A stretch of 64,000 bases of DNA from assembly GCA_002309835.1 (NCBI GenBank), contig DBYL01000019.1, forward strand, positions 5,937 through 69,936, read 5' to 3'. Both the position numbers and the translations under genes were made by a program. Of this stretch, positions 2-18,394 are shown one piece after another (within the stretch, counting starts at the first letter, position 1; every line of letters starts with the position of its first letter). The stretch is from Bacteroidales bacterium UBA1187. Its GTDB lineage: Bacteria; Bacteroidota; Bacteroidia; Bacteroidales; Paludibacteraceae. The notes beneath the pieces were generated by a model. It made no database searches, was not told where the DNA came from, and was given only the letters and a program-made list of their open reading frames with translations.

Positions 2-1705
2 CGCTTCTACGGCAAGCGGTTGGATATCGTGGATTGGACGAGTGAATATATCATCGTGAATGCGACTAATCTAAGGGCTGCGACGGGAGGAACGGGTTGG
101 ACAATCAACTATAATAGTACCGACTACACGAAAGCCAATCTGGAGACGAACAGAACCGTCAAACTGGCTCGCGGAGGTGCTTCCGCCGATAGCGAAATAC
201 TGATTAAGTTCAGCGGTACCGACGGTGTGGAATCGCGTCAGAAATATCGCGTGCCTTATCTAGTTACCACAAACCAGAACTTATCCGCGCTATCGCCGAC
301 TCCAACAACAAGCAGCGTGGTTTATGTGAAGACCGGTTCTACTTTGACAGTTTCAGCAGACGCAACCATCTCTAAACTCTTTATAAGTCCGGGTGCAAAC
401 GTAGCGATCAGCGATGGCGTTACGTTGACGATTACGGATTCCTTAGTACTTCGTACACTGCCGTGGCAAAGCGCTGCAATTAGCGGTGATTTCACTGCCG
501 GCCATACCTATTACACGCGTATAGGTCCGGATAAGTATCAAACGATAAACGGTCTGAATGGTACCACAACGTATGTTCCGTCCACCTATTACCAGTTTGC
601 GATTCCGTTTGATTGCAACATTGCGGATGTACGTCTGTCGGATGGTACTACTCCTGCATATGAGACCACTTGGGCACTGAAATACTATAGCGAATCGAAA
701 CGTGCTAACGATCGCGCAGAGGCTAATAACTGGATATTCGTGACCAATACCGGTGCGGACACGAAGATCAAAGCCCACACAGGTTATGAGTTCATGTCGA
801 ATTATAAGTTCTATCGTGAATACTATTTCCCCGTAACGCCGCCGACAACGACTACAGACGTAGCCGTAACGCGTACCGGAAGCGACGATGTGAACTCCGG
901 TTGGAATATGATTTGTTCGCCGTTGATGAGTCGTCACTACCGAAATCCGGTTCCGGAAGATGCGGTAGTATGCTTGTTGACAGAGAATGATGATTATGAG
1001 CAGAAGATCCCAGATCATTTCCATCCTGCGATTCCGTTCTTCTATCAAGCCGCCGCAAGTGGTAATGTGTCGTTTGCAGGCACAAGTACAGAGCCTTCGT
1101 TGGCTCCGCGTCGTAAAGCCGCAGTAGCCGAACCGGTACGTATCCAATGGATCCATCTGGATATCAAGGATGCGGACGGACAAGGCGATCAGACGAGCAT
1201 ATATGCTCACCCGACGCGTTACGAAGAGCGCTACCAGACCGGTATCGATGTAGCGAAACAGTCGCTTACCGCTTCGCGCGCAACGCTATACACTTCGCAT
1301 AGCTATGGCGAGATGGCGTTCGCCGGTGTATCCGATGCATTATTAGAGCAAGGCGTGGCGCTGACGGTTTATAGCCCGAAGGCACAGGAACTGACGATAT
1401 CGATGCGCGAAAATGCATGGCTCAACCGCATGGCATACGTATGGTTGTTCGATAGCGAAACGGGCACATACACCGACCTGCTGGATTCGGATGCCACCAT
1501 CGAAGTGAATGCCGGCACGACGGCGAACCGATTCTATATCATCGGTCGCTTCTTCGCTCCGCAGATCACAACGGATTTAGAGCCTACCTCCGACTCCTCT
1601 CAGAAGGGAAGAGAGGTGGAGAAACTGCTCATCCATGATAAATTATATATCCGTATCAACGGCGTATTGTATGACGCAACGGGTAAAACAGTCAATTTGA
1701 AATAA
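2..1705 (+). CDS. Exported surface protein, 5'-truncated by the window edge (hypothetical)
   Basis: The frame is open from nt 2 (RFYGKR precedes the TTG at 20 used by the ORF track), so the gene probably starts upstream of the window. It has Thr/Pro-rich linkers and no enzyme motifs. It ends in KLLIHDKLYIRINGVLYDATGKTVNLK, a tail motif shared with the genes ending at 5643 and 6926. Confidence 0.6.
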   Translation, partial: RFYGKRLDIVDWTSEYIIVNATNLRAATGGTGWTINYNSTDYTKANLETNRTVKLARGGASADSEILIKFSGTDGVESRQKYRVPYLVTTNQNLSALSPTPTTSSVVYVKTGSTLTVSADATISKLFISPGANVAISDGVTLTITDSLVLRTLPWQSAAISGDFTAGHTYYTRIGPDKYQTINGLNGTTTYVPSTYYQFAIPFDCNIADVRLSDGTTPAYETTWALKYYSESKRANDRAEANNWIFVTNTGADTKIKAHTGYEFMSNYKFYREYYFPVTPPTTTTDVAVTRTGSDDVNSGWNMICSPLMSRHYRNPVPEDAVVCLLTENDDYEQKIPDHFHPAIPFFYQAAASGNVSFAGTSTEPSLAPRRKAAVAEPVRIQWIHLDIKDADGQGDQTSIYAHPTRYEERYQTGIDVAKQSLTASRATLYTSHSYGEMAFAGVSDALLEQGVALTVYSPKAQELTISMRENAWLNRMAYVWLFDSETGTYTDLLDSDATIEVNAGTTANRFYIIGRFFAPQITTDLEPTSDSSQKGREVEKLLIHDKLYIRINGVLYDATGKTVNLK

Positions 1706-1751
1706 GGTATTAGTTTGAATTATAGAGCCTGTGAAGGTTCGGTAAGGTATA

Positions 1752-2579
1752 ATGAGAAATAAGATCAAGGGTCCTCGCGGTGCAGCGATAGTATTCCTAT
1801 GCATAGCGTTGGCTGCCATGTGGCTCATCGCGGTATACGGCACCTACGAGGATTCTAAACGCGAGAAATATGAGGTCCGCATCACGCCGGGTGCTGTGAG
1901 TTATGGTACTCACTCCACGGCCCTGATGCCGATGGCGGTAGCCCCGGCGCGCACAAGCGTGCCGATGGTGAGCGCCAATGCCGTACATAGTTATGCGCAT
2001 CATGGTCACGCGTCCGCACCTACCGTTTCGTCAGGCAAAGGACTATATACCACTTCTTCGGCCAGAGTGAAGACTATTGGTTCGGGTAATGGTGGCGGAG
2101 GTTGGGCAACCGGTAGTTCGCCATCCTCATCCTCGCAACGCGGAATCAGCTATAGCAGCGGCTCGGTAAGCATGCCCACCTTGGCGATGAATAGTTCGCT
2201 ACTCACCACAACATCCGCTGCGCAGAAGAATACACAAGAGACCGCCACACGTTACGGTATCGGACCGAGACGAGCTAAACCGAGCCCGGGTACTACCGGC
2301 GCTGATGGAGAATGGTATGATGGAGGCGAAGGCGATAGCGATTGGTGGTGGTACGATGAATACAATGATGAATGGTATCAAGTAACTACTGATGACATGC
2401 GACCAGCTGAAGATGGTACCGGTAATTTTTGGAAATATAATGGAAGTACATGGGACTATGTCGATGATAAAGGCAACCCTGTATTAACCCCTATGGGAGA
2501 AACACCGTGGATAATTATGATACTACTTGCATGCGCGTACGCGTTAACTACATATAGAAAATATAAAAAGACTGCATAA
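1752..2579 (+). CDS. Bitopic membrane protein with Ser/Gly-rich and Trp/Asp/Glu-rich regions (hypothetical)
   Basis: ATG at 1752. N-terminal TM segment (AAIVFLCIALAAMWLIAVY), then a low-complexity S/G/T stretch and an acidic Trp-rich block (GEWYDGGEGDSDWWWYDEYNDEWYQ). C-terminal TM plus basic tail (WIIMILLACAYALTTYRKYKKTA). The next gene starts 1 nt after its stop. Confidence 0.55.
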   Translation: MRNKIKGPRGAAIVFLCIALAAMWLIAVYGTYEDSKREKYEVRITPGAVSYGTHSTALMPMAVAPARTSVPMVSANAVHSYAHHGHASAPTVSSGKGLYTTSSARVKTIGSGNGGGGWATGSSPSSSSQRGISYSSGSVSMPTLAMNSSLLTTTSAAQKNTQETATRYGIGPRRAKPSPGTTGADGEWYDGGEGDSDWWWYDEYNDEWYQVTTDDMRPAEDGTGNFWKYNGSTWDYVDDKGNPVLTPMGETPWIIMILLACAYALTTYRKYKKTA

Positions 2580-2580
2580 G

Positions 2581-4377
2581 ATGAGAAAAGCAACTCTTTT
2601 CACCCTGATGGTGCTGATGACCGCTACGATGGCATGGGCACAAACAGGTAAAAAATGCTACGACGCTATTCCTATCGGAAAGGATAATAACTTCTCGGAT
2701 GAGATCAATAGTCCGACTACCAAATGGTATTCGGCGAAAACATTCGATCTGCCGCTGACTGTTTATTTCGTTCCTAAGAACGGCGCCGCCGATGAGCCAC
2801 CGATCGTTTCGATGGATTTCACTTGTACCCCCGGATGGTATGAGAATGATATCTTATGCAGTCTGTTCTGCAAAACCAGCGCCAGCGGTGGTCTGGATTT
2901 TAAACTGCCGCACTCCCCTACGTTGGAAACCAAAACCTTAGATAACGGTACATTCGTGTACTATATGTCGATGGGTAAGCGCTATCGCGACCTGCTGCTG
3001 CAGATGGGTATTCAGGAGAACCTGACGGTGTATGTAGAGGTGCAATTCAAGTCTGCCGGTGTGCTGCGTCTGGCGCCGGATGATATGTTCTCCAACTGTA
3101 TGGATGGTCCGAAATTCATGCAGTTCGGCGATACGATTCAGGTCAAAGCGCAAGATAAAGACCGTCACGTCATCGTGCCTTACGTTCAATGGATGGAGGA
3201 CTCGATTCGCTACAGCTGGCAGGGCGAGAAGAAATGCGTCGTCACGGTAGCCGGCAGTTGCGATTATGACCCGACAGACCAGATGGACGAGCGTATTCTC
3301 GAGTTCGATGAGATAGCTCCGAACAGTAGTTATAAAGTCACCAGTGAAGATATTACCCACTATGTCAAATTCGCTGATAACCAGGCAGGTATGTTCTTCG
3401 CCAAAGTATATAGCGAGAGCGATGGTATCCTTACCGTCGAGCGTATCCCGATGGCGCCTCCTGCCGAAGGAACGATTCTGCTGCACTTGGATAAACCGAC
3501 GTATCTCAATGCAAACGACACGAATGCGCTGTATGCTATTCCTAAGTCATGGAAGACGAGCGTGAAATTCACTACGCCGACGGATCATATCTTCCGGATG
3601 TATGTATCCCAGGACCCGACATTCAAGCCCTCTAATGCCACTAAGTCTTACCAGTTCTACCCCATGCAGAGCGGTCACTGGTTAGGTCTCTATGCCGATG
3701 ATTTAGCAAGCGTTTGGCCCGAACCGCGCGGCAACTATCTCTATGTGCGTTTCTGCTGCTCTGAGGCCACGTCCGTCACGCCTACCGGTTGGGCTGTTTC
3801 GGACGACGATTGCGCCGTATCGACCATTCTGTTAGATCGGTCAAAGACGATTTCCGTAGCGGCGCAGTCGCCTACTATCTATCGTGTCTATTATCCTGCT
3901 ATTCAGGGAGGTAGCCTTAGTTTCAAAATCACGGATAATAAAGACCAACTCGATGTGTTGATTGCCGACACATGCGATGCTAATATTATCAAACCGAACT
4001 ATAGCGGACTGATAGATAGCGACAAGAAGAAAAACAAACAAGTCATCATTTTCGATGCCGCTCGTATCGCCACATGGGCCGACGGCGTAGATGAATACGG
4101 CTATATCTACATTCGTATCCACCCTTCCAAAGCCTCCACAGTAGATATCACCTATGATGCGCCGGAGGAGAAAGACCCGGAGTATCAACATCCTACAATT
4201 GCGGTCGTTTGCGAGGGTTCGCAAGTCATCGTGAATGTCTCCGAGAACCAGCATATCGTCATCGAGGGTACACAAGAAGAATGGGATGCCGTAGTAGGAA
4301 CACCGCACGTACTTCATCTGCCGACAGGCACCTATACGATGAAAGGTGAATGGGAACAGATACAGATAAAATTATAA
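2581..4377 (+). CDS. Secreted hypothetical protein (598 aa)
   Basis: Signal peptide MRKATLFTLMVLMTATMAWA|Q with Gln at +1. The mature N-terminus (KCYDAIPIGKD...TKWYSAKTFDL) resembles the start of the repeats in the 6975 gene. No catalytic motifs seen. Confidence 0.6.
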   Translation: MRKATLFTLMVLMTATMAWAQTGKKCYDAIPIGKDNNFSDEINSPTTKWYSAKTFDLPLTVYFVPKNGAADEPPIVSMDFTCTPGWYENDILCSLFCKTSASGGLDFKLPHSPTLETKTLDNGTFVYYMSMGKRYRDLLLQMGIQENLTVYVEVQFKSAGVLRLAPDDMFSNCMDGPKFMQFGDTIQVKAQDKDRHVIVPYVQWMEDSIRYSWQGEKKCVVTVAGSCDYDPTDQMDERILEFDEIAPNSSYKVTSEDITHYVKFADNQAGMFFAKVYSESDGILTVERIPMAPPAEGTILLHLDKPTYLNANDTNALYAIPKSWKTSVKFTTPTDHIFRMYVSQDPTFKPSNATKSYQFYPMQSGHWLGLYADDLASVWPEPRGNYLYVRFCCSEATSVTPTGWAVSDDDCAVSTILLDRSKTISVAAQSPTIYRVYYPAIQGGSLSFKITDNKDQLDVLIADTCDANIIKPNYSGLIDSDKKKNKQVIIFDAARIATWADGVDEYGYIYIRIHPSKASTVDITYDAPEEKDPEYQHPTIAVVCEGSQVIVNVSENQHIVIEGTQEEWDAVVGTPHVLHLPTGTYTMKGEWEQIQIKL

Positions 4378-4394
4378 GAAAACTGACAAAATAC

Positions 4395-4425
4395 TTGCGT
4401 ATTTCAAACTTTTTTAGTATCTTTG
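4395..4425 (+). promoter_or_regulatory. Internal Bacteroidota-type promoter inside the exported-protein cluster
   Basis: cTTGcgtatttcaaacttttttagTAtcTTTG, with a 20-nt spacer, in the 69-nt gap after the 2581-4377 gene. Confidence 0.55.
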
Positions 4426-4446
4426 CGGCCGATTTTTTGCACACAT

Positions 4447-5643
4447 ATGCGTAACGCACGCGTACATATGAGATTAGGATGGTTCACCCTCTGCTTTATG
4501 CTGCTTGGGGTTAGCTCATCTTTTTCTTTACGCGCACAAGAGCGCGCAGGCGCCACTACCGCTACGGCTACGCCTATTATCGATACGACTACCCTACTCG
4601 TGCAGAGTGGTGCTAACTACGTTCGTTTCGAGCCGAACCGTCTGCCGGCGACTATCGTCTATATGCCGGATACGGCTTTCGGTCCTACGCCGGTGGCATT
4701 GCTGTTAGGCGACACGCTGGTGGCCAGTATGCGTTTTGAGGACTGCCAGATGGTGTGGTATTGGTCGGTAGGTGAGGAAGAGAATGCTGCGCTGGTAGAA
4801 CTATACGCGCACGAGAGCGCAACCATACAGGCACGTCCGACGATACAGTACGTAGAGAGTTGGTCCACCATAACGGGCTGCGATAGTATCATTTATCAGG
4901 GCGTGAAATATACGGAGAGCGGCATCTATCCTCTTGATACGGTGATTCTGGAGTCCCGCGACCGAAGGATAGATCTGTTAGACCTGCATATCAACTATAC
5001 GCAATACGAGGAGGTTTACGCTACGCAGTATTTCCCCTATACCGGTCCTTCGGGCAAGAAATATACGGAGACGGGCGACTATAACGATACGACGATGGCT
5101 CTCAACGGATGCAATAAGATCACAACTATCCATCTCGTCATCGATCCGAGTGCTGCAGAGGCAGATACGGTCTTCTTCTGCACAGGTTTCAATACCAAGC
5201 ATGAGGAGTTTATCGCGGAGGGGTATGTGCGTCGCTATGAGCCCTATACCTTCCAGTCCCCGAGTGAGTGGGATTATATGGAGGGCGTGATTGTGAGCGG
5301 TGAGCCGGAGCGCACATTAGTGGACATGCGCCGCGCGGAGACGAACCTGCGCGAGCACTATGTCAATGGTCTGACGCCGGTAGAGTTTATCGCATGGTCG
5401 GTATGCTACGAGGGTGCAACGACCTATGTGCCGCTGACCGTCACCAACGAACCGCAATGGGTGGATGCCGGATATATAGCTATCCAGGTGCAGTTCCGCT
5501 GCGGCGAGGTATATAATACTCAGTTCCCGACGGATATCGACCAACTGAGCATAGAAGCCGCTCCTATCAAACGGCTGGAGAAAGGACGCGTAGTCATCCT
5601 CCGCGGAGGTGAGAAATATACAATTTTGGGCACGAAGTTATAA
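4447..5643 (+). CDS. Secreted hypothetical protein with two Cys-anchored modules and a shared C-terminal tail motif
   Basis: The ORF-track start (4423) lies inside the -7 promoter box at 4418-4425. The first ATG after the predicted TSS is 4447; 4468 is an alternative. Signal peptide ...LCFMLLGVSSSFSLRA|Q. Modules GCDSIIYQGVKYTESGIY...LLDLHINY and YTETGDY...NGCNKITTIHLVIDPS. Tail IKRLEKGRVVILRGGEKYTILGTKL. Confidence 0.6.
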   Translation: MRNARVHMRLGWFTLCFMLLGVSSSFSLRAQERAGATTATATPIIDTTTLLVQSGANYVRFEPNRLPATIVYMPDTAFGPTPVALLLGDTLVASMRFEDCQMVWYWSVGEEENAALVELYAHESATIQARPTIQYVESWSTITGCDSIIYQGVKYTESGIYPLDTVILESRDRRIDLLDLHINYTQYEEVYATQYFPYTGPSGKKYTETGDYNDTTMALNGCNKITTIHLVIDPSAAEADTVFFCTGFNTKHEEFIAEGYVRRYEPYTFQSPSEWDYMEGVIVSGEPERTLVDMRRAETNLREHYVNGLTPVEFIAWSVCYEGATTYVPLTVTNEPQWVDAGYIAIQVQFRCGEVYNTQFPTDIDQLSIEAAPIKRLEKGRVVILRGGEKYTILGTKL

Positions 5644-6926
5644 TGGCTAAGCGAATCTTTGACATACTTGTTTTGCTTGTGGCTTTTGCGTCGTGCGCAT
5701 GGACACAAAATCCGTGGGACGATACGGAGAGAGCGGCGTGTGAGGTATATCGTAAAGGTATCAAAGCGCCCTACTACTATTGCGACTGCCATATGACGAG
5801 CACCTCGTTCACCTTCCCTCTCGATACCATCGTGAAGGATACGATGTGGTTTGACGCTACGATAAACGACATCAAGCAAGGCCTCTCGGCATACTGGTTC
5901 GCCGATTGTGCAGCAACGATAGAGGTATATCTCATGTGTACCAATAAGACGCCGATATATAAGATGACGGTGCAGCCGAATCGCATGTGCGAGATCGATG
6001 CGGCGGAGATACAGAAGAAGATAGAGGAGAATAGCGATAAGGTACAGGAGGCTATCAGTACGCTCACGCCCCATATGCGCGTCTATCCGGAGGGCAAAGG
6101 TTCGGGTCGCGTTTACTGCTATCCGTATGATAAAGGTCCGGCATCTACCTGCGTTGATCCCCTTCCTTTACGCGCGGGCATGCTATACATCAACGCGGAC
6201 GAGGAGGCCTCTTATCGCTTAGACTACTCGCAGATACCGGCATCGAGCAAGGCCTTCATCCATTGGAAAGAGAAGAAGAACACGCCGTGCGAGATGTGGC
6301 TGACGATGGATAGCTGTACGGGAGAAGAGATTGGGCGCACGAAATTATCCGACTCGCTGCACGTCTATATCCTCGACTCGGCGAAACTGAATATTGCACG
6401 CGAGGGACAACGCCCTATATGGTTGCATACCAAGCATGCGGCGAATAAGACGGGACGTATCCACTACTATATCGACCCGCATTTCAGCGACCCGGCGGAA
6501 GCGGTAAGCAAGAGCGCTTGCCAAGGCAAGGCCATCAAGCAGAACGGGCGCAACTATACAAGCGATACGGCTTTTGTAGATACCGTATGGGTGAAAGGGG
6601 ATACGCTGCGTACGATGGAGCTGAACCTCACTTTCACCGCGCCGGAAATAGAGTATGATACGCTTCGTCTGGAGGAGAAAGACCTCAAACTCGGCTATCG
6701 GCATACGGACTACGGCGTCACGCTATACGCCTATGGAGATACGCTGATAGAAGTACAAGGCGCCAGCGCCTGCGCGCGCAAAGTCCTGCTTACCGTCATG
6801 GAGCCGACGGCATATGAGATAGTCATTGACGGGCAAGTGAAGATGCGCAAGCAGATGCAAGACGGACAAGTATTCATCATCATTGATGACAAACAATATA
6901 ATGTCTTTGGACAACAAACAAAATAA
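5643..6926 (+). CDS. Secreted or lipoprotein hypothetical protein with a shared C-terminal tail motif
   Basis: TAATG overlap with the previous stop. Signal peptide MAKRIFDILVLLVAFASCAWTQ (Cys or Gln cleavage context). Cys-rich N-domain. Modules ACQGKAIKQNGRNYTSDTAF...MELNLTFTAPE and ...ACARKVLLTVMEP. Tail MRKQMQDGQVFIIIDDKQYNVFGQQTK. Confidence 0.6.
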   Translation: MAKRIFDILVLLVAFASCAWTQNPWDDTERAACEVYRKGIKAPYYYCDCHMTSTSFTFPLDTIVKDTMWFDATINDIKQGLSAYWFADCAATIEVYLMCTNKTPIYKMTVQPNRMCEIDAAEIQKKIEENSDKVQEAISTLTPHMRVYPEGKGSGRVYCYPYDKGPASTCVDPLPLRAGMLYINADEEASYRLDYSQIPASSKAFIHWKEKKNTPCEMWLTMDSCTGEEIGRTKLSDSLHVYILDSAKLNIAREGQRPIWLHTKHAANKTGRIHYYIDPHFSDPAEAVSKSACQGKAIKQNGRNYTSDTAFVDTVWVKGDTLRTMELNLTFTAPEIEYDTLRLEEKDLKLGYRHTDYGVTLYAYGDTLIEVQGASACARKVLLTVMEPTAYEIVIDGQVKMRKQMQDGQVFIIIDDKQYNVFGQQTK

Positions 6927-6974
6927 CAAACAACAAATTATACTAACTGATTTATTAACAAATCCCAAAACAAC

Positions 6975-9900
6975 ATGAAAAAGTTTCTACTTTTCGCTGC
7001 TGCAGCCATGACGTCCATCTTTATGATGGCCGGTAACGGTAGTACAAAAGCAAATGCGATTGACTTTGATTGGGACAATGGTCATGTGCAGGAAGGTTCT
7101 AAGACCTTGTGGTACAAAGTATCACTCGATCCTCTCTACCAAGAGGAGAACCCGTCTTTGACACTGCATATGGTCAGCCAAACGCTGCAGGACACTGTTC
7201 AGGTGACTCTTCAGGCTACTGTAGCGGGTCAATCTGAGGAACGTACGTACACTATCATGCCGGGTAAGACCCAGAGTTGGTCTGCTAATGCTGCCACCCT
7301 CGTGCGTATGAAGCAGACAGAGGTGTACATCACGTTGAAAACTGTGGCAACCGATGAGGCCGCCCGAATCAAGCTGAGTGCCAAAGTGTACGACGCTGTC
7401 GATTTGGATGAGGCTTGTAAGGATGCCAAGACGTTTAACTGGACCAGCGGTATTACCCAGAACAAAGGTGTGCTGCAATGGTTTAAAGTAAACCTCAAGG
7501 ATGCTAAGACGGCAAACAAGAAGGATGTGAAGATTACCATGACCAACAAAGGTACCGGTAAACTGAACCTCCGCGTCGGCCAGTCTCTCGACTGTCCTTC
7601 ATCCGGTTTGACGAAGCGCTCCTTCGTCCTGGAAGCCGGCGAGAAAGTGTATGACACGATCCCGCAGAGTATGATCAAGGCTGTCGCTGCTGACGAGCTC
7701 TATGTCACCTTTGACAACAACCAACCGATTGAGGTAAAAGCAGAGTTGATCGACCAGCCCGCTTCGCCGATCTTCGATTTCAGTACTGTTACCGTGGACA
7801 GTCTGCCCGTTGTGTACAACGAGGTGCTGAACGGCAAGCACTACTTCAAGATCAACGTGCGCCAGATGAATGACTCGGCGAAGTATGAGCCGGAGTTCAC
7901 CTTCCGCAACAACGGCGAGAATCCTGTGAAGATCGTTCGTAAGATGTCGTTTGAGAATCCCGTTTGGGGATGGCAGACAAGCGAGATCGAGCTGGCCGCA
8001 GGTGAAGAAGCTGTCGAGGTGATCAAAAAGAACGTAGTGGATGGTATCAATGTAGATTCGATTCCGTATATCTACCTCGTGATCGACGCTGACGCTGAGT
8101 TCCAACTCATCGGTCGTTACAAACACGTACGCGAAGGTAAGGCTTGTAAGTCGAATATTGACTTCAACTGGGAGAAAGGTCATACCCAGGAAGGCAAAAC
8201 CACGCAATGGTATGCTATTGATGTGACGGAAGCTAAACGCGACATCCGTGATATTAAGGTCAAAGTGGAGAATATCGGTTATGACAACGCTAAAGTAAGT
8301 GCCGCTATGGCCTTCAGTTGTCCGTATATCGACCTCCAGGAGATGACCCGCACCATCAAACTGGGCGATTCGATCAAGACCACCGTTGCTTACTCGATGT
8401 ACGCGATGATGTCGGATACCATCTGGGTAGGCGTTACTACCGACCAGGATATCCGCATCTCTGTGGATACCGCTAAGGTAGAGACCAAGCCGGCTAATCC
8501 TAATGACCCGTGTCTGAAAGCTATTGACTTCGACTGGGAAGACGGCGGTAAGGTATCCAAACTCGACACCGTATGGTATAAGATTGACATGCGCGAGGTA
8601 CGTGACCGCAAGGAGTTCCCGACCGTTTACGTGAAGAACCTCAACCTCACCAGTGCAGTTACCGTTTACGGCGAGCTCTCGCTCGAGTGCCCGGATACGA
8701 TTCCTAACCAGACACGTTCGCTCAAACTGGCCGCAGGTGAGACCTATTCCAAACAGCTCGCGCGTAACATGTTTGAGAATATCAAGGCTGATTCCGTTTA
8801 TCTGCGTGTTGTCGCTACGGATTCGATTGCCTTTGAGATTCGTCTGACCGAAGAGGTAGAGGGATCGAGCTGTACTTCTCCTATCCGCTTCAACTGGACT
8901 TCCGGTAATGACCAGGCTGCTAATGCCAGCGTTTGGTATGCCGTTGATCTGCGCGAGGCGAAGGCAAGCACCAGCGACGTAAAGATCTCTATCATCAACA
9001 AGGGCACCACGGCCGGTAAGGGTACTGCTTATCTCGCTTACTCCTGCTTGGATGAGTCGCTGCAGAGCGTTAACTTCTCGCTCGGTACCAGCGCTTCAGA
9101 TAACAAGAAGACCACTACCCTGCCTCACAGCGCATTGGAGACGGTGAACGACAGTATCATCTTCGTTCGCGTATATGGAGACATCGCGCTCCATCTCGAG
9201 GCTACGCTCGTTCCCGCTGAGGAACTGCCGGTAGAGGATCAGGTAAGCTGCGAGACGATCGCTACCGCTACCGAACTCCAATGGAATACCGTGTATACGC
9301 AAAACGGCGGAAGCCAATGGTACATCCTCAAGAGAGAGGTGCTTGATACCCTTCTGAATGGCGACATCACAGCTGAAGCACATATCTGGAATGAGGCAGG
9401 TGTTGAACTCGCTATCACCGGTGAGATCGCTTACCACTGCCCTATCACCACGAAGATGATGAGCAAGAAACTCACCGTGAAGAGCGGCGGAGAGTTCATC
9501 AAGATGATTGCTGCCAACACTGCGCAACAGGTATCCGGTAAGGACACCGTCCTGATTCGTCTGAAGGCTGCCGGTAAGTTCCGTTTTGAGGCACATCTCG
9601 TATCGCCGTGGAATGGAAATACGCGTGATGCTGCTCTTCGTTTGAAACTCGATAATGAGATTGAGCAGGAGGCTAACACCATCATGTGGTATCGTATCAA
9701 TACAGCCGATCTCAAAGCCGTTGATAATCTTGATGGTCTGCGCGTCTTCGTAGAAGCAAAGACCCTTGCTACCAATGCGACCATCGAAGCTGCTGTATTC
9801 GAAGGCGATAGTCAAGAGGATATGATTGAGTACTTCACCGGTCGTACACTCAAACGTACAAGCGGTGCCATCAGAGCTAAACAGCATTATATCCCGGGTT

Positions 9901-12035
9901 ATGTGATCAAGGGTCTGGCTGACAAAGTGCTCTACGTTCGCGTGAAGACTACCCAGCCTATTAAACTCAAGACCGTTACGGATCTGTACCCGACGCTGGC
10001 TACACCGATCCCGACAAAAGAGCAGGCTATCCTCGCTGTTCCGAATGTAGATTATCAAATTCCTGCCGGTGGTCAATGGTTCGCCGTTTGTCTCCCGACG
10101 ATTCTGGATAACTATAAGATGACGCGCGATGCAGGCTTTGAGGTAATCAACCCCAATAGCACGGATGTGACGGTAACTTCTACTGCTACATGGCAAGAAG
10201 AGCTGACCTATAATGTTCCGAAACGCTCGCGTAAGATCGGCGCTAACAAGCATTATGTGAAGACCTTCTACAGCGCTATTGAAGCTGCTGCTAAACGTGC
10301 AGGTTTCAGTCTCTCGTTGGAAGGTACCGATCCTTCCCTCATCGATAGTTTGGTTCATTCTTATGTAACCGACGAGCATATGGCAGCATATGTCTTCATC
10401 GATCATAACGGTACCGAACCGCTGATTGCTCGCGTGAAAGCACAACCGAAGACCGGTGAGTATATGAGCAAACCGATCCTCTTCGATTGGGACCACGGTA
10501 ATGTGAACGCCGGTGCTACCACTGCAAACGCAGCTTATAGCCCGAAGAACTGGTTCTTGGCGGAGATCGACTCGACGCGTATTCCGGAAGGTAAGGAGCT
10601 GGAGCTCCACGTAACCAACTGGGGTAGCGATGTATCGAAAGCTACGGCGAAGATCATGCTCGATACGCTGAGTGTACAAGGCCAGACCGTTTCGTATGAC
10701 CTCGCTGCTAATGAAGATAAGAGCAAACGTATCGCTCGTGAGTTGCTCATTGGTAACTCTAACGTCCTCATCGAGTTTGAGTCTGATTCTGCCAACTATA
10801 TCTGGGCAGAGATCGTGGACGCACGCCCGAAAGATACGATTGAGGTAGATACAGTTGTAGTATGGTGCGCAGGCGAGGAGTATGACGATCCGTTCACCGG
10901 TTTGAAGTACACCATCGATGCAGAGACATTAGCTCCTGTTACATGGGATGATCAGTGGGAGTGGGTTAACGACACCGCTGCCGCTATCTGGGATTCGCTT
11001 GTTCACTTCACCCTCGTTCCGTATATCGATCCGGTGATCTATACCGTTGAGGAGATTGCTGACCAACCGGTTATCAAAGCCGGTCAACCGATCGACGTAA
11101 CTGCTGCTACAACATGGCTGATGACGCAGTACGCCGGACAGGTAGCACTGAACGACACCATTAAAGATGCTGTACAGATCATATGGGAGATTAGCACGAA
11201 TAATGCCAACACCCAGTTTGAGGAAGTATCCGCTGCCGCTATTGAGTCGGCCGGCGTTGTACTGCGCTACCGCATCGTTACCTTCTGTGAGGACGATACG
11301 CTGACCAGCCCGTTGTTCTTCAACTCGGTTCGCGACACTATCACCGTTGAAGAGGCATGTAACTTCTATGACGAATGGGAATATAAGGATAGCATCTACT
11401 ATGAGGCTACTCTGGATTCCGCAGTGTTTACGCAGCCGAACGGAAGCAAGCTTATCCACTATCTGGATCTCCAGAAAGTGACTAACCCTGCCCGTATCGA
11501 CCTCGTAGGTGTAGCCAAGTACGGCAACCGCCTGCTGCTCATCGACCGTTTCGACTTTGCTGCTAAGGGCTTCGCAACGGATTCCCTCTATGCCGAAGGT
11601 GGTAACGTAACGGTAGAATGGTATCGCGTGAATGCAGACGGAGGCAAACTGATTGGCGAAGGTTATTCGTACAATAAGGAAGATGGTGATACCCTCGTAG
11701 GTACTTTCTTCGCAATCATCAAGATCAGTTCCGCAACGGGTTGCGGTCTGCTTGGTCGTACGCAAGATATCGTATGTGAGGCTGCTGTCGCTACTCCTGC
11801 TCCGGCATTAGTACCGAATATGGTTATGCCGGGTGAGAATGTGAATGTCATCAATCTTGACCCGAATAAAGAAACCGTTATCCGCATCTTCACTACGGAA
11901 GGTCTGCTCCAAAGCACGTACAACGTACGCGGACAGGAGACCTTCATGCTACCGGCTGCGGCTGACCACGGATTCTATCTGGTTGAGCTCTTGAATGACA
12001 GCATGAAGTCAACCTTACGTTACATTGTTAAATAA
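6975..12035 (+). CDS. Giant T9SS-secreted surface protein (1686 aa) with ten tandem beta-sandwich-like repeats and a C-terminal sorting domain
   Basis: N-terminal signal peptide. Ten ~120-aa repeats each open with C/A-x-x-(I)-x-F-x-W...G...(T/S)xWY and close with an alternating hydrophobic strand. The last ~77 aa (PNMVMPGENVNVINLD...GFYLVELLNDSMKSTLRYIVK) match the canonical T9SS CTD pattern. Confidence 0.85.
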   Translation: MKKFLLFAAAAMTSIFMMAGNGSTKANAIDFDWDNGHVQEGSKTLWYKVSLDPLYQEENPSLTLHMVSQTLQDTVQVTLQATVAGQSEERTYTIMPGKTQSWSANAATLVRMKQTEVYITLKTVATDEAARIKLSAKVYDAVDLDEACKDAKTFNWTSGITQNKGVLQWFKVNLKDAKTANKKDVKITMTNKGTGKLNLRVGQSLDCPSSGLTKRSFVLEAGEKVYDTIPQSMIKAVAADELYVTFDNNQPIEVKAELIDQPASPIFDFSTVTVDSLPVVYNEVLNGKHYFKINVRQMNDSAKYEPEFTFRNNGENPVKIVRKMSFENPVWGWQTSEIELAAGEEAVEVIKKNVVDGINVDSIPYIYLVIDADAEFQLIGRYKHVREGKACKSNIDFNWEKGHTQEGKTTQWYAIDVTEAKRDIRDIKVKVENIGYDNAKVSAAMAFSCPYIDLQEMTRTIKLGDSIKTTVAYSMYAMMSDTIWVGVTTDQDIRISVDTAKVETKPANPNDPCLKAIDFDWEDGGKVSKLDTVWYKIDMREVRDRKEFPTVYVKNLNLTSAVTVYGELSLECPDTIPNQTRSLKLAAGETYSKQLARNMFENIKADSVYLRVVATDSIAFEIRLTEEVEGSSCTSPIRFNWTSGNDQAANASVWYAVDLREAKASTSDVKISIINKGTTAGKGTAYLAYSCLDESLQSVNFSLGTSASDNKKTTTLPHSALETVNDSIIFVRVYGDIALHLEATLVPAEELPVEDQVSCETIATATELQWNTVYTQNGGSQWYILKREVLDTLLNGDITAEAHIWNEAGVELAITGEIAYHCPITTKMMSKKLTVKSGGEFIKMIAANTAQQVSGKDTVLIRLKAAGKFRFEAHLVSPWNGNTRDAALRLKLDNEIEQEANTIMWYRINTADLKAVDNLDGLRVFVEAKTLATNATIEAAVFEGDSQEDMIEYFTGRTLKRTSGAIRAKQHYIPGYVIKGLADKVLYVRVKTTQPIKLKTVTDLYPTLATPIPTKEQAILAVPNVDYQIPAGGQWFAVCLPTILDNYKMTRDAGFEVINPNSTDVTVTSTATWQEELTYNVPKRSRKIGANKHYVKTFYSAIEAAAKRAGFSLSLEGTDPSLIDSLVHSYVTDEHMAAYVFIDHNGTEPLIARVKAQPKTGEYMSKPILFDWDHGNVNAGATTANAAYSPKNWFLAEIDSTRIPEGKELELHVTNWGSDVSKATAKIMLDTLSVQGQTVSYDLAANEDKSKRIARELLIGNSNVLIEFESDSANYIWAEIVDARPKDTIEVDTVVVWCAGEEYDDPFTGLKYTIDAETLAPVTWDDQWEWVNDTAAAIWDSLVHFTLVPYIDPVIYTVEEIADQPVIKAGQPIDVTAATTWLMTQYAGQVALNDTIKDAVQIIWEISTNNANTQFEEVSAAAIESAGVVLRYRIVTFCEDDTLTSPLFFNSVRDTITVEEACNFYDEWEYKDSIYYEATLDSAVFTQPNGSKLIHYLDLQKVTNPARIDLVGVAKYGNRLLLIDRFDFAAKGFATDSLYAEGGNVTVEWYRVNADGGKLIGEGYSYNKEDGDTLVGTFFAIIKISSATGCGLLGRTQDIVCEAAVATPAPALVPNMVMPGENVNVINLDPNKETVIRIFTTEGLLQSTYNVRGQETFMLPAAADHGFYLVELLNDSMKSTLRYIVK
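7050..10830 (+). repeat. Ten tandem divergent domain repeats (period ~355-445 nt) inside the 1686-aa CDS
   Basis: Repeat starts read from the sequence at about 7050, 7413, 7768, 8142, 8511, 8871, 9249, 9620, 10021 and 10467. Examples: AIDFDWDNGHVQEGSKTLWYKVSL, AKTFNWTSGITQNKGVLQWFKVNL, NIDFNWEKGHTQEGKTTQWYAIDV, AIDFDWEDGGKVSKLDTVWYKIDM, PIRFNWTSGNDQAANASVWYAVDL, PILFDWDHGNVNAG. The similarity is at protein level only; I saw no long exact DNA repeats. Confidence 0.75.
11802..12032 (+). other. T9SS C-terminal sorting domain (CTD) of the 1686-aa protein
   Basis: The terminal ~77 aa have the typical CTD strand pattern (VIRIFTTEGLL...YNVRGQETFMLP...GFYLVELLNDS...TLRYIVK). The protein ends in K. 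Confidence 0.75.
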
Positions 12036-12052
12036 GAAAAGGAGGTAGCACA

Positions 12053-13453
12053 ATGAAAACTTTGAAATCAATTTTAATTGCAGCCACCTTGATATGTGCA
12101 TCTGCCGTGACGACTATGTCGGCGCAGCAGGCTGCAGAGTCCGCACAACCCCAACAACCTAAATTGGCAGTAGGCGACTCCGTTATGATTCGACGTGAGT
12201 GTACCAAATATCTCACCGGCGAGACTCCGTCCACCTGGGTTTGGGATAAAGTACACACTGTACATCAGATCGGAACAAAACGTAATCCGAATAGATACCC
12301 TAACGGCATTCTGTTATGGAAGATTCGTTCGTGGGTTTGCGATAGCTGTATTACGGTTGTAAATGGTCATGCTGAAGAAGCAGCTCAAAAAGCCGCTGAA
12401 GAGCAGTCCGCAGAACGTGAGGCATGGGAACAAGCGAAGAAAGAGAATGCAGACGCAGAAGCTGCTGCGGCTCGCGTTGCCGAAGAAAAAGCAGCACGCG
12501 AAGCAGCTGAGCGCGCTGCTTTGGAAGAAGCGCGCAGACTAGCCGAAGAGCAGGCTGCTGCAGAGGCTAAGGCTGCTGCAGAGCAAGCGAAAGCTGACTC
12601 TATTCAGTCAGCGCAGAAATTCAAAGGCAGCTATGATCGCTTCACCATCGGTCTGCGCGGCGGTATCGCGTCGCAACTGCACCAAGCGGTACAGGGCGTA
12701 GATGCTAAGTGGGGTATCGGCGGTGACGTTCTGCTCGACCTCCAGTATGCGCACTATTGGACCAAAGACGGTCGTTCTACTGACCTCGGTCTGATTGTAG
12801 GTCTGAGTGCCGGTTATGCGCAAGGTAGCTTTAAAGGCTCTGAGAATAGCACCTTCACGAAGGGAAATTTGGATTATACCGTACAGGCTGACGGTATCAA
12901 CGAGACGGATCATCAGATCCAACTCGAGGTGCCGTTGATGTTCTCCTTGATTCATCAGAGCGGTCTGTTCTTCAACGTAGGTCCGCGCTTCATGATTCCG
13001 GTTTATACTCCGTATAAGCAGACTATCAATAGCGCTACGGCTGCCATCTCGGCATACGATCCCGCAACAGGTGTTACCCTTCAGGATAACGTCGTTACCG
13101 GTAAGTATATCGATCAGCAACCGGCTGAAGCAAACGGCCTTCAGTTTAAGTTGAATATCATGCTCACCGCCGAAATCGGATATGAGTGGATTCTCAAGAG
13201 CGGTAACTCTCTCGGACTCGGCGTATATGCTGACTACAGCGTATACAACACCCGTTCGAAACTGAATGCTGCTGCAAGCGAGTCGCTGCTCAATATCACT
13301 CCTCCGAGTGATTCCGGTATCGCTACGCTGGAGATGCTCTCCGCTACGAGCACATACGCAAAGAGCGTAGGTTACTTTGACCTCGGCGTGAAGTTGGCTT
13401 ATCATTTCAACTTCCCGAAGAAGAGAAGCAATATTGACGCTAAACTGTTCTAA
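12053..13453 (+). CDS. Outer-membrane beta-barrel protein with N-terminal small globular domain and Ala/Glu/Lys-rich helical spacer
   Basis: Signal peptide ...AVTTMSA|QQ. Residues ~36-104 form a compact Trp/Cys-containing domain. Residues 106-182 (nt 12368-12598) are AEEAAQKAAEEQ...AAAEAKAAAEQAKA. The C-terminal ~275 aa have alternating-hydrophobic strands and end in aromatic ...DAKLF, typical of OMP barrels. Confidence 0.65.
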   Translation: MKTLKSILIAATLICASAVTTMSAQQAAESAQPQQPKLAVGDSVMIRRECTKYLTGETPSTWVWDKVHTVHQIGTKRNPNRYPNGILLWKIRSWVCDSCITVVNGHAEEAAQKAAEEQSAEREAWEQAKKENADAEAAAARVAEEKAAREAAERAALEEARRLAEEQAAAEAKAAAEQAKADSIQSAQKFKGSYDRFTIGLRGGIASQLHQAVQGVDAKWGIGGDVLLDLQYAHYWTKDGRSTDLGLIVGLSAGYAQGSFKGSENSTFTKGNLDYTVQADGINETDHQIQLEVPLMFSLIHQSGLFFNVGPRFMIPVYTPYKQTINSATAAISAYDPATGVTLQDNVVTGKYIDQQPAEANGLQFKLNIMLTAEIGYEWILKSGNSLGLGVYADYSVYNTRSKLNAAASESLLNITPPSDSGIATLEMLSATSTYAKSVGYFDLGVKLAYHFNFPKKRSNIDAKLF

Positions 13454-16728: not shown

Positions 16729-16732
16729 ATCG

Positions 16733-16806
16733 TCGGGGAGACGTGATTCGAACACGCGACCTCCGGTCCCCCAGACCGTTGCGCTACCGGGCTGCGCCAC
16801 TCCCCG
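16733..16806 (-). tRNA. tRNA-Pro (anticodon GGG)
   Basis: The reverse complement folds as a 74-nt cloverleaf: acceptor CGGGGAG/CTCCCCG, D-stem GCGC/GCGC, anticodon stem ACGGT/ACCGG (one A-G mismatch), loop CTGGGGG with anticodon GGG at 16770-16772 and G37, T-loop TTCGAAT, discriminator A. CCA is not encoded. Confidence 0.85.
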
Positions 16807-16829
16807 AACACTCTTTTCAAAAGAGCGTG

Positions 16830-16860
16830 CAAAGGTACGACTTTTTTTTGATATACGCAA
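16830..16860 (-). promoter_or_regulatory. Bacteroidota sigma-A type promoter for tRNA-Pro
   Basis: Minus strand reads cTTGcgtatatcaaaaaaaagtcgTAccTTTG. The -33 TTG and -7 TAnnTTTG are separated by exactly 20 nt, ~25 nt upstream of the tRNA 5' end. Confidence 0.65.
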
Positions 16861-16865
16861 GAGAA

Positions 16866-18369: not shown

Positions 18370-18394
18370 GAAGTGGAGACTCCGCTTCTTTTTT
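18370..18394 (+). terminator. Intrinsic terminator-like hairpin 2 in the greA leader
   Basis: GAAGTGG...CCGCTTC stem (one G-T wobble) followed by TTTTTT (18389-18394). Confidence 0.5.

Follow-up and report, generated by a model that had tools for sequence, protein, structure and literature searches.

What do seven co-directional genes of exported proteins build at the start of this window (the whole stretch of 64,000 nucleotides analysed here)? An earlier note, made from the sequence, had read them as a self-contained surface-structure or adhesin system comprising one giant cargo of the T9SS, accessory proteins and a dedicated outer-membrane beta-barrel. We found its observations confirmed in part and its interpretation supported in part. 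The block and the neighbours that bear on it are:

2–1705, + strand: G1, the C-terminal 567 aa of an 1884-aa giant secreted protein
1752–2579, + strand: G2, 275 aa, with an N-terminal hydrophobic anchor
2581–4377, + strand: G3, 598 aa, secreted, of no known family
4418–4425, + strand: TAtcTTTG, matching (by pattern only) the -7 promoter motif of Bacteroidetes; it lies between G3 and G4, in their 69-nt gap
4447–5643, + strand: G4, 398 aa, with alternative starts at 4423 (TTG) and 4468 (ATG)
5643–6926, + strand: G5, 427 aa (AlphaFold2 pLDDT 90.8)
6975–12035, + strand: G6, 1686 aa, a giant secreted protein
12053–13453, + strand: G7, 466 aa, an outer-membrane protein
13459–14106, + strand: tsaB, downstream of the block
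14106–16706, + strand: porW/sprE, after tsaB (NF052312, E = 2.6e-173)
46966–47970: gldB (TIGR03514, 220.7 bits; cutoff 190)

The coordinates and the gaps between the genes (46, 1, 69, -1, 48 and 17 nt from G1 to G7) bear out the packed, co-directional arrangement. Housekeeping genes flank it, with lnb upstream and tsaB-porW downstream. The order G1-G2-G3-G4-G5-G6-G7 is kept across 57 Paludibacteraceae/Bacteroidales genomes, counted at species level and originating from ruminant guts, so the block is syntenic in relatives; because the order persists although G6 identity across these genomes is only 37–56%, its conservation is more than chance. Among the related loci reaching past G7, all but three continue with tsaB and porW, and G7 still stands with G6 where these are missing (L040, L041 and L061). 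The earlier note had described tsaB, PorW/SprE and GldB correctly; porW/sprE and gldB, both within the window, speak for the presence of a T9SS.

The reading we favour, at a probability of roughly 60%, is that this is an operon-like locus, vertically inherited in rumen Paludibacteraceae, which encodes a set of T9SS-delivered cell-surface proteins together with two envelope proteins. Its role is most likely that of an adhesin, a surface fibril or a coat, not catalysis. Searches with the seven proteins against Pfam, NCBIfam, PHROGs and PDB sequences gave no significant match, and the absence of any enzyme family in the first three agrees with the reported lack of an enzyme signature. Sequence and fold searches likewise placed the block in neither Fim/Mfa pili, SprB/RemA loci nor PULs. 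What is supported is that the genes form a conserved set in one direction, and that their exported products are non-enzymatic and linked to the T9SS.

The N-termini are signal-like. By inspection, the residue after the predicted signal peptidase I cut is Gln in the four proteins for which this had been claimed (G3, AWA|Q; G4, RA|Q; G5, WT|Q; G7, SA|Q), as in the Q-rule for signal peptidase I substrates (PMC5837995; PMC10653852). The start of G1 lies upstream of the window, and the out-of-window part does add domains, as the earlier note had asked: the full-length protein carries a signal peptide of its own and, in the upstream part, Listeria-Bacteroides repeats (PF09479, E = 1.3e-14). Judging from the signal peptides, Sec would deliver all products to the periplasm.

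Whether the proteins go further bears on their C-terminal elements:

1574–1702, + strand: short tail of G1, 43 aa, after the ...APQITT|DLEP junction
4180–4374, + strand: C-terminal beta module of G3, ~65 aa, after an A-P-E-E-x-D-P linker
5533–5640, + strand: short tail of G4, 36 aa, after FPT|DIDQ
6810–6923, + strand: short tail of G5, 38 aa, with predicted strands at residues 401–406, 409–414 and 417–419 and a disordered linker at 391–398
11799–12032, + strand: C-terminal 78 aa of G6, a divergent T9SS type-A-like CTD ending in ...STLRYIVK

The G6 domain had been called a canonical T9SS CTD. It matches TIGR04183 over model positions 3–72 of 72 and to the last residue, at 18.7 bits (E = 0.0012), a score below the cutoff of 23 and obtained only when the last 78 aa were scanned alone; divergent and sub-threshold is the better description. 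The match also reaches the last residue in four of five homologues, and the STLRYIVK end is nearly invariant among orthologues. The curated T9SS threshold is reached by no protein of the window.

The tail said to be shared within the block was found in G1, G4 and G5. It measures 31–44 aa from a P-T|(G/D)-(I/V)-(D/E)-like linker, which resembles a P-T|G-I sortase site, and it always stands at the extreme C-terminus. Its core of ~26 residues reads K-x-I-x-N-G-Q-V-x-I-I-R-x-G-x-K-Y-N-x-L-G-Q-K-I; among the 119 distinct C-termini of the three families that carry it, the K and the last G are conserved in 100%, the Y in 98% and the I in 95%. In two G1 orthologues (L003 and L008) the tail is replaced by a TIGR04183-scoring domain (24.4 and 22.6 bits, cutoff 23), both times at the same junction, GRF(F/Y)APQ(I/V)ATG(I/L)D, and three G4 orthologues (L035, L040 and L061) have a type-A-like end instead (19.9, 14.2 and 12.9 bits with the same model). 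Metagenome matches to the motif lay 0–5 residues from the stop codon in 60/60 cases. Of the carriers, 32/60 are unrelated to the block and have no G1–G7-like neighbour within 4 kb; classical signal peptides are present in 15 of the 16 complete unrelated carriers, and one unrelated carrier is an FN3-repeat protein. Because a type A domain can replace the tail and the tail occurs on unrelated signal-peptide proteins, the sequences argue that the T9SS cargo comprises G1, G4, G5 and G6, and probably G3 as well. For G1, we propose that the 43-aa tail is a minimal T9SS sorting signal.

The same observations bear on the scheme of the earlier note, in which G6 is the sole T9SS cargo and G1 and G3–G5 are periplasmic or outer-membrane accessory proteins. 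The shared tail would then be a locus-specific docking or assembly tag, for example a strand inserting into G7 or a neighbouring subunit, as might be expected from the constant adjacency of G7, the confinement of the tail to the G1, G4 and G5 positions across 60 related loci, and its lack of significant similarity to the G6 CTD. A local tag fits poorly with the 32 unrelated tail-ended proteins and with the exchange of the tail for a TIGR04183-scoring domain in G1 and G4 orthologues, and we consider this scheme distinctly unlikely. G6 as cargo stands; the accessory role of G1, G4, G5 and probably G3 gives way to modular C-terminal sorting elements. Homology of the tail to known CTDs is unproven, since profile comparison of its core with the G6 CTD found no significant similarity and its elements G-x-x-[YFV]-I and Y-[ND]-x-x-G stand in reverse order relative to type A motifs B and D.

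G3, with a mean column identity of 50% the most conserved of the small members, ends in L-x-x-G-T-Y-T-L-x-G-x-x-E-x-I-x-I-x-L. Its module has no TIGR04183 match, is recognised as a CTD by no model and shows no significant hhalign similarity to the G6 CTD. In seven of eight G3–G4 fusions the last ~65 aa of G3 are dropped and the G4 tail ends the fused protein; in this the module acts like an exchangeable C-terminal sorting element.

Under the favoured reading, the general T9SS (translocon and PorV-type carrier) would recognise the divergent ~78-aa CTD of G6, the short tails of G1, G4 and G5 and the ~65-aa module of G3. By analogy with the short CTDs of Prevotella intermedia, the PorU sortase would then cut the linker and fix the passenger to surface lipopolysaccharide. 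Those CTDs are 40–55 aa long, are predicted to form a flexible linker followed by a single three-stranded sheet, and have the cleavage motif PT/GI with Ile at +2 (Ye et al. 2025, Open Biol; PMC11969387). Compared by description rather than by sequence, the tails are similarly short; a disordered linker precedes three strands in the AlphaFold2 model of G5, and the PT|GI-like linker has a hydrophobic residue at +2. In both cases short and long signals occur in one organism on signal-peptide proteins, with adhesin-like passengers (FN3, LRR and beta-helix domains). The core differs (G-Q-x-x-I-I...K-Y-N-x-L-G-Q, with the D-like before the B-like element and no clear motif E strand), and the hosts are uncultured rumen Paludibacteraceae, not Prevotella. 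With the type A cargo of Porphyromonas gingivalis and Tannerella forsythia (gingipains and S-layer proteins attached by PorU to A-LPS), the block shares signal peptides, a beta-sandwich signal at the very C-terminus and, through porW/sprE, an adjoining T9SS gene; unlike that cargo, G6 falls below the TIGR04183 cutoff and the passenger domains fall outside all described families.

The passengers are built largely of repeats and modules:

7044–10826, + strand: stalk of G6, about 9–10 tandem repeats of ~120 aa (repeat HMMs)
11286–11624, + strand: G6 region with Cys-anchored modules common to G4

Each G6 repeat has a conserved Cys...Cys-Pro pair and probably an Ig-like/beta-sandwich fold; G6 orthologues match PF05506 (35.8 bits) and PF22544. 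These repeats would form a surface stalk. Repeat-like N-termini had been described as common to the proteins, but the G6-repeat HMMs had no match in G1, G3, G4 or G5, and hhalign gave only 44% for G3 against G6. The Cys-anchored modules are indeed shared, between G4 and G5 (hhalign 97%, E = 3e-11) and between G4 and G6 (95%, E = 3e-8). G4 consists of an N-domain and degenerate modules of this kind, their number and the inserted domains differing among species; the AlphaFold2 model of G5 runs from beta-sandwich/jelly-roll domains through two such modules to the linker and tail. G3, G4 and G5 would be smaller partners of the stalk. G1, whose body differs in length among species (orthologues reach at least 3347 aa), would be the exposed, diversifying binding part. 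The natural G3–G4 fusions and the shared modules suggest that the proteins work together.

Beta-sandwich domains could also be carbohydrate-binding modules, making the block a T9SS-linked, non-PUL system for glycan binding or degradation, comparable to the multi-modular cellulases that rumen Bacteroidales secrete by the T9SS (PMC5831590). The rumen habitat fits, the best matches of the G5 model include the sugar-binding botulinum HA70/HA3 and GH2 beta-sandwich domains, and the GH88 domain PF07470 in 3/32 G4 orthologues (best E = 1.8e-8) hints, against the favoured reading, at glycan processing rather than pure adhesion. Because their TM-scores are about 0.18, the G5 matches, the only kind returned by Foldseek, are generic beta-sandwich ones; the GH88 matches are unplaced within the G4 orthologues, two long G4 orthologues have no PDB relatives, and the window's seven proteins contain no catalytic or CBM family. 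We regard a glycan system as very unlikely.

It is less improbable, though still unlikely, that the locus is a loose cluster of independent T9SS surface proteins, paralogous or with modules in common, brought together by duplication and shared regulation and forming no single structure. G7 would then be a common envelope protein of the OmpA-like or porin-like kind, and G2 would be unrelated. Signal peptides and C-terminal signals are individual to each protein, barrels of the PF13568 type occur widely in Bacteroidota, and the promoter-like motif before G4 allows independent expression. Such a cluster would hardly keep a strict gene order over 57 species at low identity, fuse G3 and G4 repeatedly with precise domain loss, or hold G7 beside G6 where tsaB-porW is missing. 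The description 'self-contained' is likewise unproven: the block relies on the general T9SS and has the promoter-like motif inside it.

In the favoured reading G7 and G2 are the two envelope proteins. G7 has three parts:

12158–12367, + strand: small N-terminal beta domain with conserved Cys50 and S-W-x-C-x-x-C (Cys96, Cys99)
12371–12607, + strand: Ala/Glu/Lys-rich helix of ~79 residues, TolA-like in composition
12638–13450, + strand: C-terminal beta-barrel, ending in Phe

The N-domain has no detectable known family; SWxCxxC is kept in 49/56 orthologues. The helix is located in the periplasm. That G7 is an outer-membrane beta-barrel is supported by barrel strands in its low-confidence model (pLDDT 58.8), by the top 50 Foldseek matches to that model, all outer-membrane barrels, and by PF13568 matches in 6/39 orthologues; the predicted strands probably number 10–12. 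PorP/SprF was rejected as its identity for want of a match to PorP/SprF models. The barrel is 'dedicated' insofar as it always adjoins G6, but not in being a PorP/SprF carrier, and no G7-like gene lies within 4 kb of tail carriers outside the locus. We take the layout of a periplasmic N-domain, long helical spacer and outer-membrane barrel to resemble, in architecture only, envelope tethers of the OmpM/SlpA type and TolA-like ones; SLH and OmpA_C domains are both missing from G7.

G2 continues from its anchor into a Ser/Gly/Thr-rich and then a Trp/Asp/Tyr-rich segment, and ends in a conserved P-x-G-x-(T/A)-P-W motif, a hydrophobic helix and a basic end. It had been called bitopic; the N-terminal anchor is there, but with the C-terminal one it has two hydrophobic segments, which makes that topology uncertain. 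In the weakest step of the proposed scheme, G7, with its barrel, ~12-nm periplasmic helix and Cys-bearing N-domain, would probably anchor or organise the assembly across the envelope, joined by G2 as an inner-membrane protein with a periplasmic Trp/Asp-rich segment.

Type V (Fim/Mfa) pili are likewise multi-gene surface loci of Bacteroidales in which C-terminal strands matter to the fate of the proteins, but their pilins are lipoproteins and polymerise through strand exchange. The block proteins differ in their signal peptidase I sites (A|Q), and they show neither a conserved lipobox Cys nor a pilin family or fold match. In the sprCDBF operon of Flavobacterium johnsoniae and the pairs of type B cargo and PorP-SprF carrier (PMC9143113; PMC12618676; PMC12635249), as here, a gene for a giant repetitive T9SS surface protein is directly followed by one for an outer-membrane beta-barrel, and further large secreted proteins are encoded upstream in the operon. 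The G6 CTD is type-A-like rather than type B, and G7 lacks a PorP/SprF match. Conserved periplasmic cysteines are common to G7, SprF and PorG; those in the C-tails of SprF and PorG bond to GldK/PorK, whereas G7 has them in the N-domain that a long helix bears at its end. The SprB-repeat Pfam had no match in the window proteins. The G5 family is narrow, and its profile also picked up giant proteins with SprB-type repeats.

We rate the block of seven + strand genes (G1–G7) as a lineage-specific, multi-cargo T9SS surface-protein locus that would combine an uncatalogued minimal C-terminal signal with an uncharacterised tethered barrel. The earlier note had read it as a self-contained T9SS surface or adhesin system, a general idea that survives here with several of its particulars corrected and with the function of the block still inferred. 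The intergenic gaps reported there (46, 1, 69, −1, 48 and 17 nt) follow from the ORF coordinates:

2..1705, + strand, G1, cut at its 5' end by the window edge
1752..2579, + strand, G2, 275 aa
2581..4377, + strand, G3, 598 aa
4447..5643, + strand, G4, 398 aa
5643..6926, + strand, G5, 427 aa
6975..12035, + strand, G6, 1686 aa
12053..13453, + strand, G7, 466 aa

The upstream part of G1 was taken from a public contig identical to the window over 12,579 shared bases. Full G1 comprises 1884 aa; it starts with a signal peptide and contains two Listeria-Bacteroides repeats (PF09479, E=1.3e-14). Apart from these out-of-window repeats, no significant Pfam, NCBIfam or PHROGs match was obtained for G1–G7, and for the window proteins the same scans confirm that the block carries no enzyme signature. 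PDB sequence and family-profile searches with G3, G5, G6, G7 and the G7 N-domain returned no relatives. The signal peptides, with Gln at +1 in four of the proteins, are as described from the translations and are consistent with the published Q-rule (PMC5837995, PMC10653852); in the family consensuses the Ala-Gln junction is kept only in G5 and G7.

The gene order G1-G2-G3-G4-G5-G6-G7 is kept in related loci, so that the lack of synteny that would have counted against the original proposal is not what we found. On the 3' side, G7 is followed by tsaB and porW, except in three of the loci that reach past it. On the 5' side, a membrane protein gene with an Lnb_N domain (PF13387; L001:918-2069, in the corresponding public locus) shares 4 nt with the start of G1; in another locus (L049) the Lnb-like ORF stops at the first base of G1. 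Because Lnb is the lipoprotein N-acyltransferase of Bacteroides (PMC11573676), we treat lnb as a housekeeping neighbour and rejected it as a component of the system; it may be co-transcribed with the block while being unrelated in function. Judging from its synteny, the block is a stable locus of the chromosome that is passed on vertically. A phage or mobile-element origin was rejected on the absence of PHROGs hits, the flat GC content of the block and its flanks (~0.50) and the constant place of the locus on the chromosome, with lnb on one side and tsaB on the other.

Full-length relatives of G6 number in the hundreds (39–56% identity among the best 120 listed); among the matches listed all are unnamed or 'hypothetical', and those from named sources are Paludibacteraceae MAGs. 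When each species was represented by one genome, members of the G6 family turned up in at least 57 genomes, a lower bound because two exact peptide patterns served for the scan. All of these genomes belong to Paludibacteraceae or 'uncultured Bacteroidales', and for most of them the record title points to the gut of a ruminant or another herbivore. The G5 family is narrow: a word-indexed search gave 71 clusters, all at E<1e-108, and in an exhaustive HMMER search 96 of 1.84 billion representatives matched at E<1e-30.

G1, G4 and G5 end in a common motif (the tail). Over 119 distinct C-termini, drawn from the three families and from G3–G4 fusions, the tail core reads K(100%)-x-[IL]-x-N-G(78%)-Q-[VL]-[YVF]-I(95%)-[IL]-R-[GD]-[GD]-x-K-Y(98%)-[NDT]-[VI]-L-G(100%)-Q-K-I, and ~10–15 residues upstream of it lies a linker, T-(G/D/A)-(I/V/L)-(E/D), with Thr in 57%. 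Orthologues exchange this tail for longer domains. The G1 tail is swapped in four loci (L003, L006, L008 and L009) for a ~70-aa domain, always at the same GRF(F/Y)APQ(I/V)ATG(I/L)D junction. Scored against TIGR04183, the T9SS type A CTD model (cutoff 23 bits), this domain reaches 22.6 bits in L008 and 24.4 bits in L003, which places the orthologous G1 of L003 among type A cargo. The G4 tail is swapped for a type-A-like end in L020, L035, L040, L041 and L061, with TIGR04183 scores of 19.9 bits (L035), 14.2 bits (L040) and 12.9 bits (L061).

The tail also occurs away from the block. A metagenome scan with the G4-type core returned 60 loci, in every one of which the motif lies 0–5 residues from the stop codon. 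Copies of the block account for 28 of them; in the other 32 (within L087–L122) the tail sits on proteins unlike G1–G7, with no G1–G7-like gene within 4 kb. These secreted proteins, encoded on metagenome contigs, are 400–1360 aa long, and 15 of the 16 complete ones have classical MKK...A-x-A signal peptides; one (L114) is an FN3-repeat protein. The ATGID/TATAID-type linker accompanies the tail on them as well (e.g. ATGIDD, TATAIDL). The tail could have been a docking tag specific to this locus, but with 32 unrelated proteins ending in it, signal peptides on nearly all of the complete ones and no G1–G7-like neighbour beside them, that explanation is now unlikely.

The closest functional parallel for the tails is found in Prevotella intermedia, with whose 'short CTDs' we compared them by their published description. 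These CTDs of T9SS cargo are 40–55 aa long (Ye et al. 2025, PMC11969387), are predicted to form one three-stranded sheet after a flexible linker, and carry a PT|GI cleavage motif with Ile at +2 (PMC11969387); they are cleaved and the passenger is glycosylated in the same way as with long CTDs (PMC11969387). The block tails, at 31–44 aa from the linker motif to the C-terminus, are slightly shorter. The AlphaFold2 model of G5 (pLDDT 90.8, pTM 0.75), the one tail modelled and the basis of the three-strand prediction, has a disordered linker (391–398) followed by strands at 401–406, 409–414 and 417–419, as in the P. intermedia description. The upstream linker consensus, with I/V/L two positions after its Thr, resembles PT|GI and would be a putative cleavage site. 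The two differ in motif order: P. intermedia short CTDs run B (Y..G plus a basic residue), D (GxY-I), E (basic) (PMC11969387), whereas the tail has B-like (K-Y-N-x-L-G-Q-K) and D-like (G-Q-x-[YFV]-I-I) elements in reversed order relative to the canonical motifs. An hhalign comparison of the tail with the G6 CTD was not significant, and TIGR04131, the type B CTD model, matched neither G1 and G3–G6 (E<=0.1) nor the tails of G1 and G3–G5 (E<=10).

The CTD swaps among orthologues, the occurrence on other proteins, the G5 model and the P. intermedia precedent together make the tail a candidate general, modular C-terminal sorting signal, one that would be functionally interchangeable with a type A CTD. 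Most likely it is a minimal T9SS signal.

The 1686-aa G6 had been credited with a canonical T9SS CTD. Scanned alone, its last 78 aa align with positions 3–72 of the 72 in TIGR04183 and end at the last residue, at 18.7 bits, under the cutoff of 23; the whole protein gave no match at E<=0.1. Four of five G6 homologues match the model at the extreme C-terminus (14.5–17.8 bits), and the end (...STLRYIVK) is nearly invariant in orthologues. By its similarity to the model the domain is thus a divergent, type-A-like CTD, not a canonical one, and with a Sec signal peptide (by inspection) at one end and this CTD at the other G6 has the layout of type A cargo. Its body consists of about nine or ten tandem ~120-aa repeats (repeat HMMs place them at aa 24-142, 143-262, 288-378, 386-506, 508-628, 629-750, 760-878, 885-1001 and 1165-1284), each with a conserved Cys...Cys-Pro pair. 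Because G6 orthologues lie at or near the Pfam thresholds for the beta-sandwich families PF05506 and PF22544, the repeats fit a stalk of predicted Ig-like domains.

G3 ends in a ~65-aa beta module that follows an A-P-E-E-x-D-P linker. None of the CTD models tried detects this module, and hhalign revealed no significant similarity of the G3 C-terminus to the G6 CTD. A fused G3–G4 gene is present in eight species, seven of which keep G3 to about residue 533 and G4 from about residue 141, losing the G3 C-terminal module together with the G4 signal peptide and N-domain, so that the G4 tail forms the end of the protein. Across the fusion loci (L011, L013, L017, L030, L037, L046, L055 and L059) the products are ~850–1100 aa long, with the last ~65 aa of G3 and the first ~140 aa of G4 gone. 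The L056 fusion is instead near end-to-end, with G3 to residue ~597 and G4 from ~44. Because the fusions drop the G3 module and leave the G4 tail to end the protein, the module appears to behave as a C-terminal sorting module would. The block could also be a loose cluster of independent cargo proteins; set beside this rival, the fusions constitute Rosetta-stone evidence that points to G3 and G4 acting together.

A Cys-anchored module of ~40–50 aa, C-x-S-x-x-W-x-G-x-x-Y-x-E-S-G-x-Y...G-C-D-S-x-x-T-L-x-L-T-I, is common to G4 and G5 (97%, E=3e-11, hhalign) and to G4 and the C-terminal part of G6 (95%, E=3e-8, profile comparison); its number in G4 differs between species. The other proposed relationship, repeat-like N-termini shared between the proteins, is supported neither by hhalign, which found nothing significant for G3 against G6, G5 against G3 or G5 against G6, nor by the G6 repeat HMMs, which matched no other block protein. 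Through its Cys-module region the G5 profile also matches giant proteins (e.g. P0402, P0369, P0455 and P0464) from Chitinophagales, Daejeonella and Paludibacteraceae; they reach 5308 aa in length and 43 matched stretches, with E-values of 1e-9 to 1e-22 summed over many stretches. On this profile similarity we place the Cys-anchored modules in a wide class of extracellular Bacteroidota repeats. By eye, the repeats of the giants resemble SprB repeats and some of the giants end in apparent type B CTDs, which suggests a distant link between the Cys modules and SprB repeats; a Pfam search of the window proteins and of 32 G4 orthologues found no SprB repeat (PF13573).

Foldseek with the G5 model gave generic beta-sandwich or jelly-roll folds only (SID1 ectodomain, botulinum HA70/HA3, CUB; TM-scores ~0.18). 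Among the 32 G4 orthologues of one alignment (A4), three match PF07470 Glyco_hydro_88 (best E=1.8e-8) and three match PF18663 Pallilysin; from these matches, G4 looks like a scaffold into which different domains can be inserted. The resemblance of G5 to HA70 and the Glyco_hydro_88 matches are the points in favour of a glycan-binding or glycan-degrading system, a weak alternative.

G7 belongs to a well-conserved family (mean column identity 49–68%). Its AlphaFold2 model is of low confidence (pLDDT 58.8) with a clear layout: a small beta domain (43–102), a helix (107–185) and strands from 196 to 454. The top 50 Foldseek matches are all outer-membrane barrels, including Pla/OmpT, OpcA, OmpA, NspA and NalP, and six of 39 orthologues match PF13568 (best E=1e-4). 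With its C-terminal barrel of amphipathic strands, G7 is predicted to be an outer-membrane beta-barrel of OMP_b-brl_2-like type; neither it nor the 39 orthologues match the PorP/SprF models (PF11751 / TIGR03519). The helix is rich in Ala, Glu and Lys, a TolA-like composition, and its ~79 residues would span ~12 nm. Pfam and PDB searches assigned the N-domain to no family, and a suspected resemblance to SH3b cell-wall-binding domains was dropped for lack of a match in either. Three cysteines of the N-domain are kept in 49–50 of 56 orthologues:

12197-12202, + strand, Cys50
12338-12349, + strand, Cys96 and Cys99 in S-W-x-C-x-x-C

All three are lost together in one sub-clade (L020, L040, L041, L057 and L061), which overlaps the sub-clade with a long CTD on G4 and is partly without tsaB-porW downstream. 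In SprF, a carrier, and in PorG, cysteines of the periplasmic tails form disulfide bonds with the GldK/PorK track (Liu et al. 2025, PMC12635249); a comparable link through the G7 cysteines is a lead, nothing more. Outside the block, proteins bearing the tail lack a G7-like gene beside them, so G7 itself probably does not serve as the tail's carrier. In G2, a hydrophobic anchor at the N-terminus is accompanied by conserved periplasmic motifs and a Trp/Asp/Tyr-rich segment; its C-terminal stretch (2480-2576; orthologue alignment A9) consists of a conserved P-x-G-x-(T/A)-P-W motif, then a hydrophobic helix, then basic residues. This three-part end recalls sortase/exosortase-type C-terminal sorting signals; none of the models matched it.

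As to gene layout, with a barrel gene placed after the gene for a giant cargo, the closest parallels are sprCDBF and the pairs of type B cargo with PorP-SprF (PMC9143113, PMC12618676). The block shares with these pairs the adjacency of G6 and G7 and differs in barrel family and in the absence of a type B CTD. Pilins of type V (Fim/Mfa) pili are lipoproteins of the FimA/Mfa fold, a class that the block does not fit: its proteins have signal peptidase I-type sites, Cys18 of G5 is not conserved, and family searches found no pilin family in G1–G7; in the fold comparison, made with the G5 model, no Fim/Mfa pilin was among the matches. Nor does the block qualify as a PUL, which would have a SusC/SusD pair: TonB-dependent receptor and SusD families are absent from all seven proteins.

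In the surface-protein locus that we propose, the products would be exported by Sec and their C-terminal elements then recognised by the T9SS, with cleavage in the linker and surface attachment to be expected by analogy with P. intermedia. G1 and G3–G6 would jointly form a surface adhesin or fibril, in which G6 may be the stalk and the hypervariable G1 the exposed binding part; G7 and G2 would have an anchoring or organising role. A bolder, joint reading holds both that the tail is an undescribed class of minimal T9SS signal, unlike type A, type B and P. intermedia short CTDs in motif order and widely used by rumen Bacteroidales, and that G7 and G2 make up a new type of carrier or anchor, spanning the envelope, for a surface filament of several proteins. 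The G7 periplasmic helix would then present the Cys-bearing domain to the GldK/PorK track or to peptidoglycan, by analogy with SprF and PorG. We consider it improbable that both halves hold; if they did, a gliding-adhesin-like apparatus would exist in an anaerobic gut lineage.

Current prediction of T9SS cargo relies on TIGR04183 and TIGR04131, both of which miss every protein of the block. Should the short tail prove to be a true signal, counts of T9SS-secreted proteins in rumen Bacteroidales are too low. The exchanges of short tail and long CTD among orthologues amount to a natural experiment that could define the smallest element able to replace a full CTD. Set against the SprB/SprF paradigm, the locus is an unstudied arrangement of several cargo, an inner-membrane protein, a tethered barrel and an adjoining porW, and it could account for the attachment of an abundant, uncultured rumen lineage to feed particles or other cells.

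Downstream of the block lie tsaB, porW/sprE (NF052312, E=2.6e-173), a tRNA-Pro gene on the − strand and miaB. The sole clear + strand terminator-like hairpin in the intergenic regions is at 18370, 3' of miaB, and a weaker match occurs at 16826, just upstream of miaB. Two short features of the region are:

4418-4425, G3–G4 gap, TAtcTTTG, match to the Bacteroidetes −7 promoter motif
16732-16806, − strand, tRNA-Pro (GGG), between porW and miaB

The motif at 4418 could be an internal promoter before G4, and its position favours a later start for G4 (predicted at 4447 or 4468). A 490-aa GTG ORF (16743..18215) overlaps the tRNA-Pro gene; the 5' extension of this ORF is spurious, and miaB matches TIGR01574 from 16869 on. 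Between 49183 and 52049 lie a 300-aa ORF with a weak ExeM/NucH endonuclease-domain match (E=6e-10, far under its cutoff) and, after it, a 650-aa ORF without an NCBIfam match. Elsewhere in the window, a lolD-like ABC ATPase gene (46319..46969; TIGR02211, 273 bits, under the cutoff of 307.75) runs into the start of gldB (46966..47970; TIGR03514, 220.7 bits), a pair that joins a lipoprotein-export gene to a gliding/T9SS lipoprotein gene.
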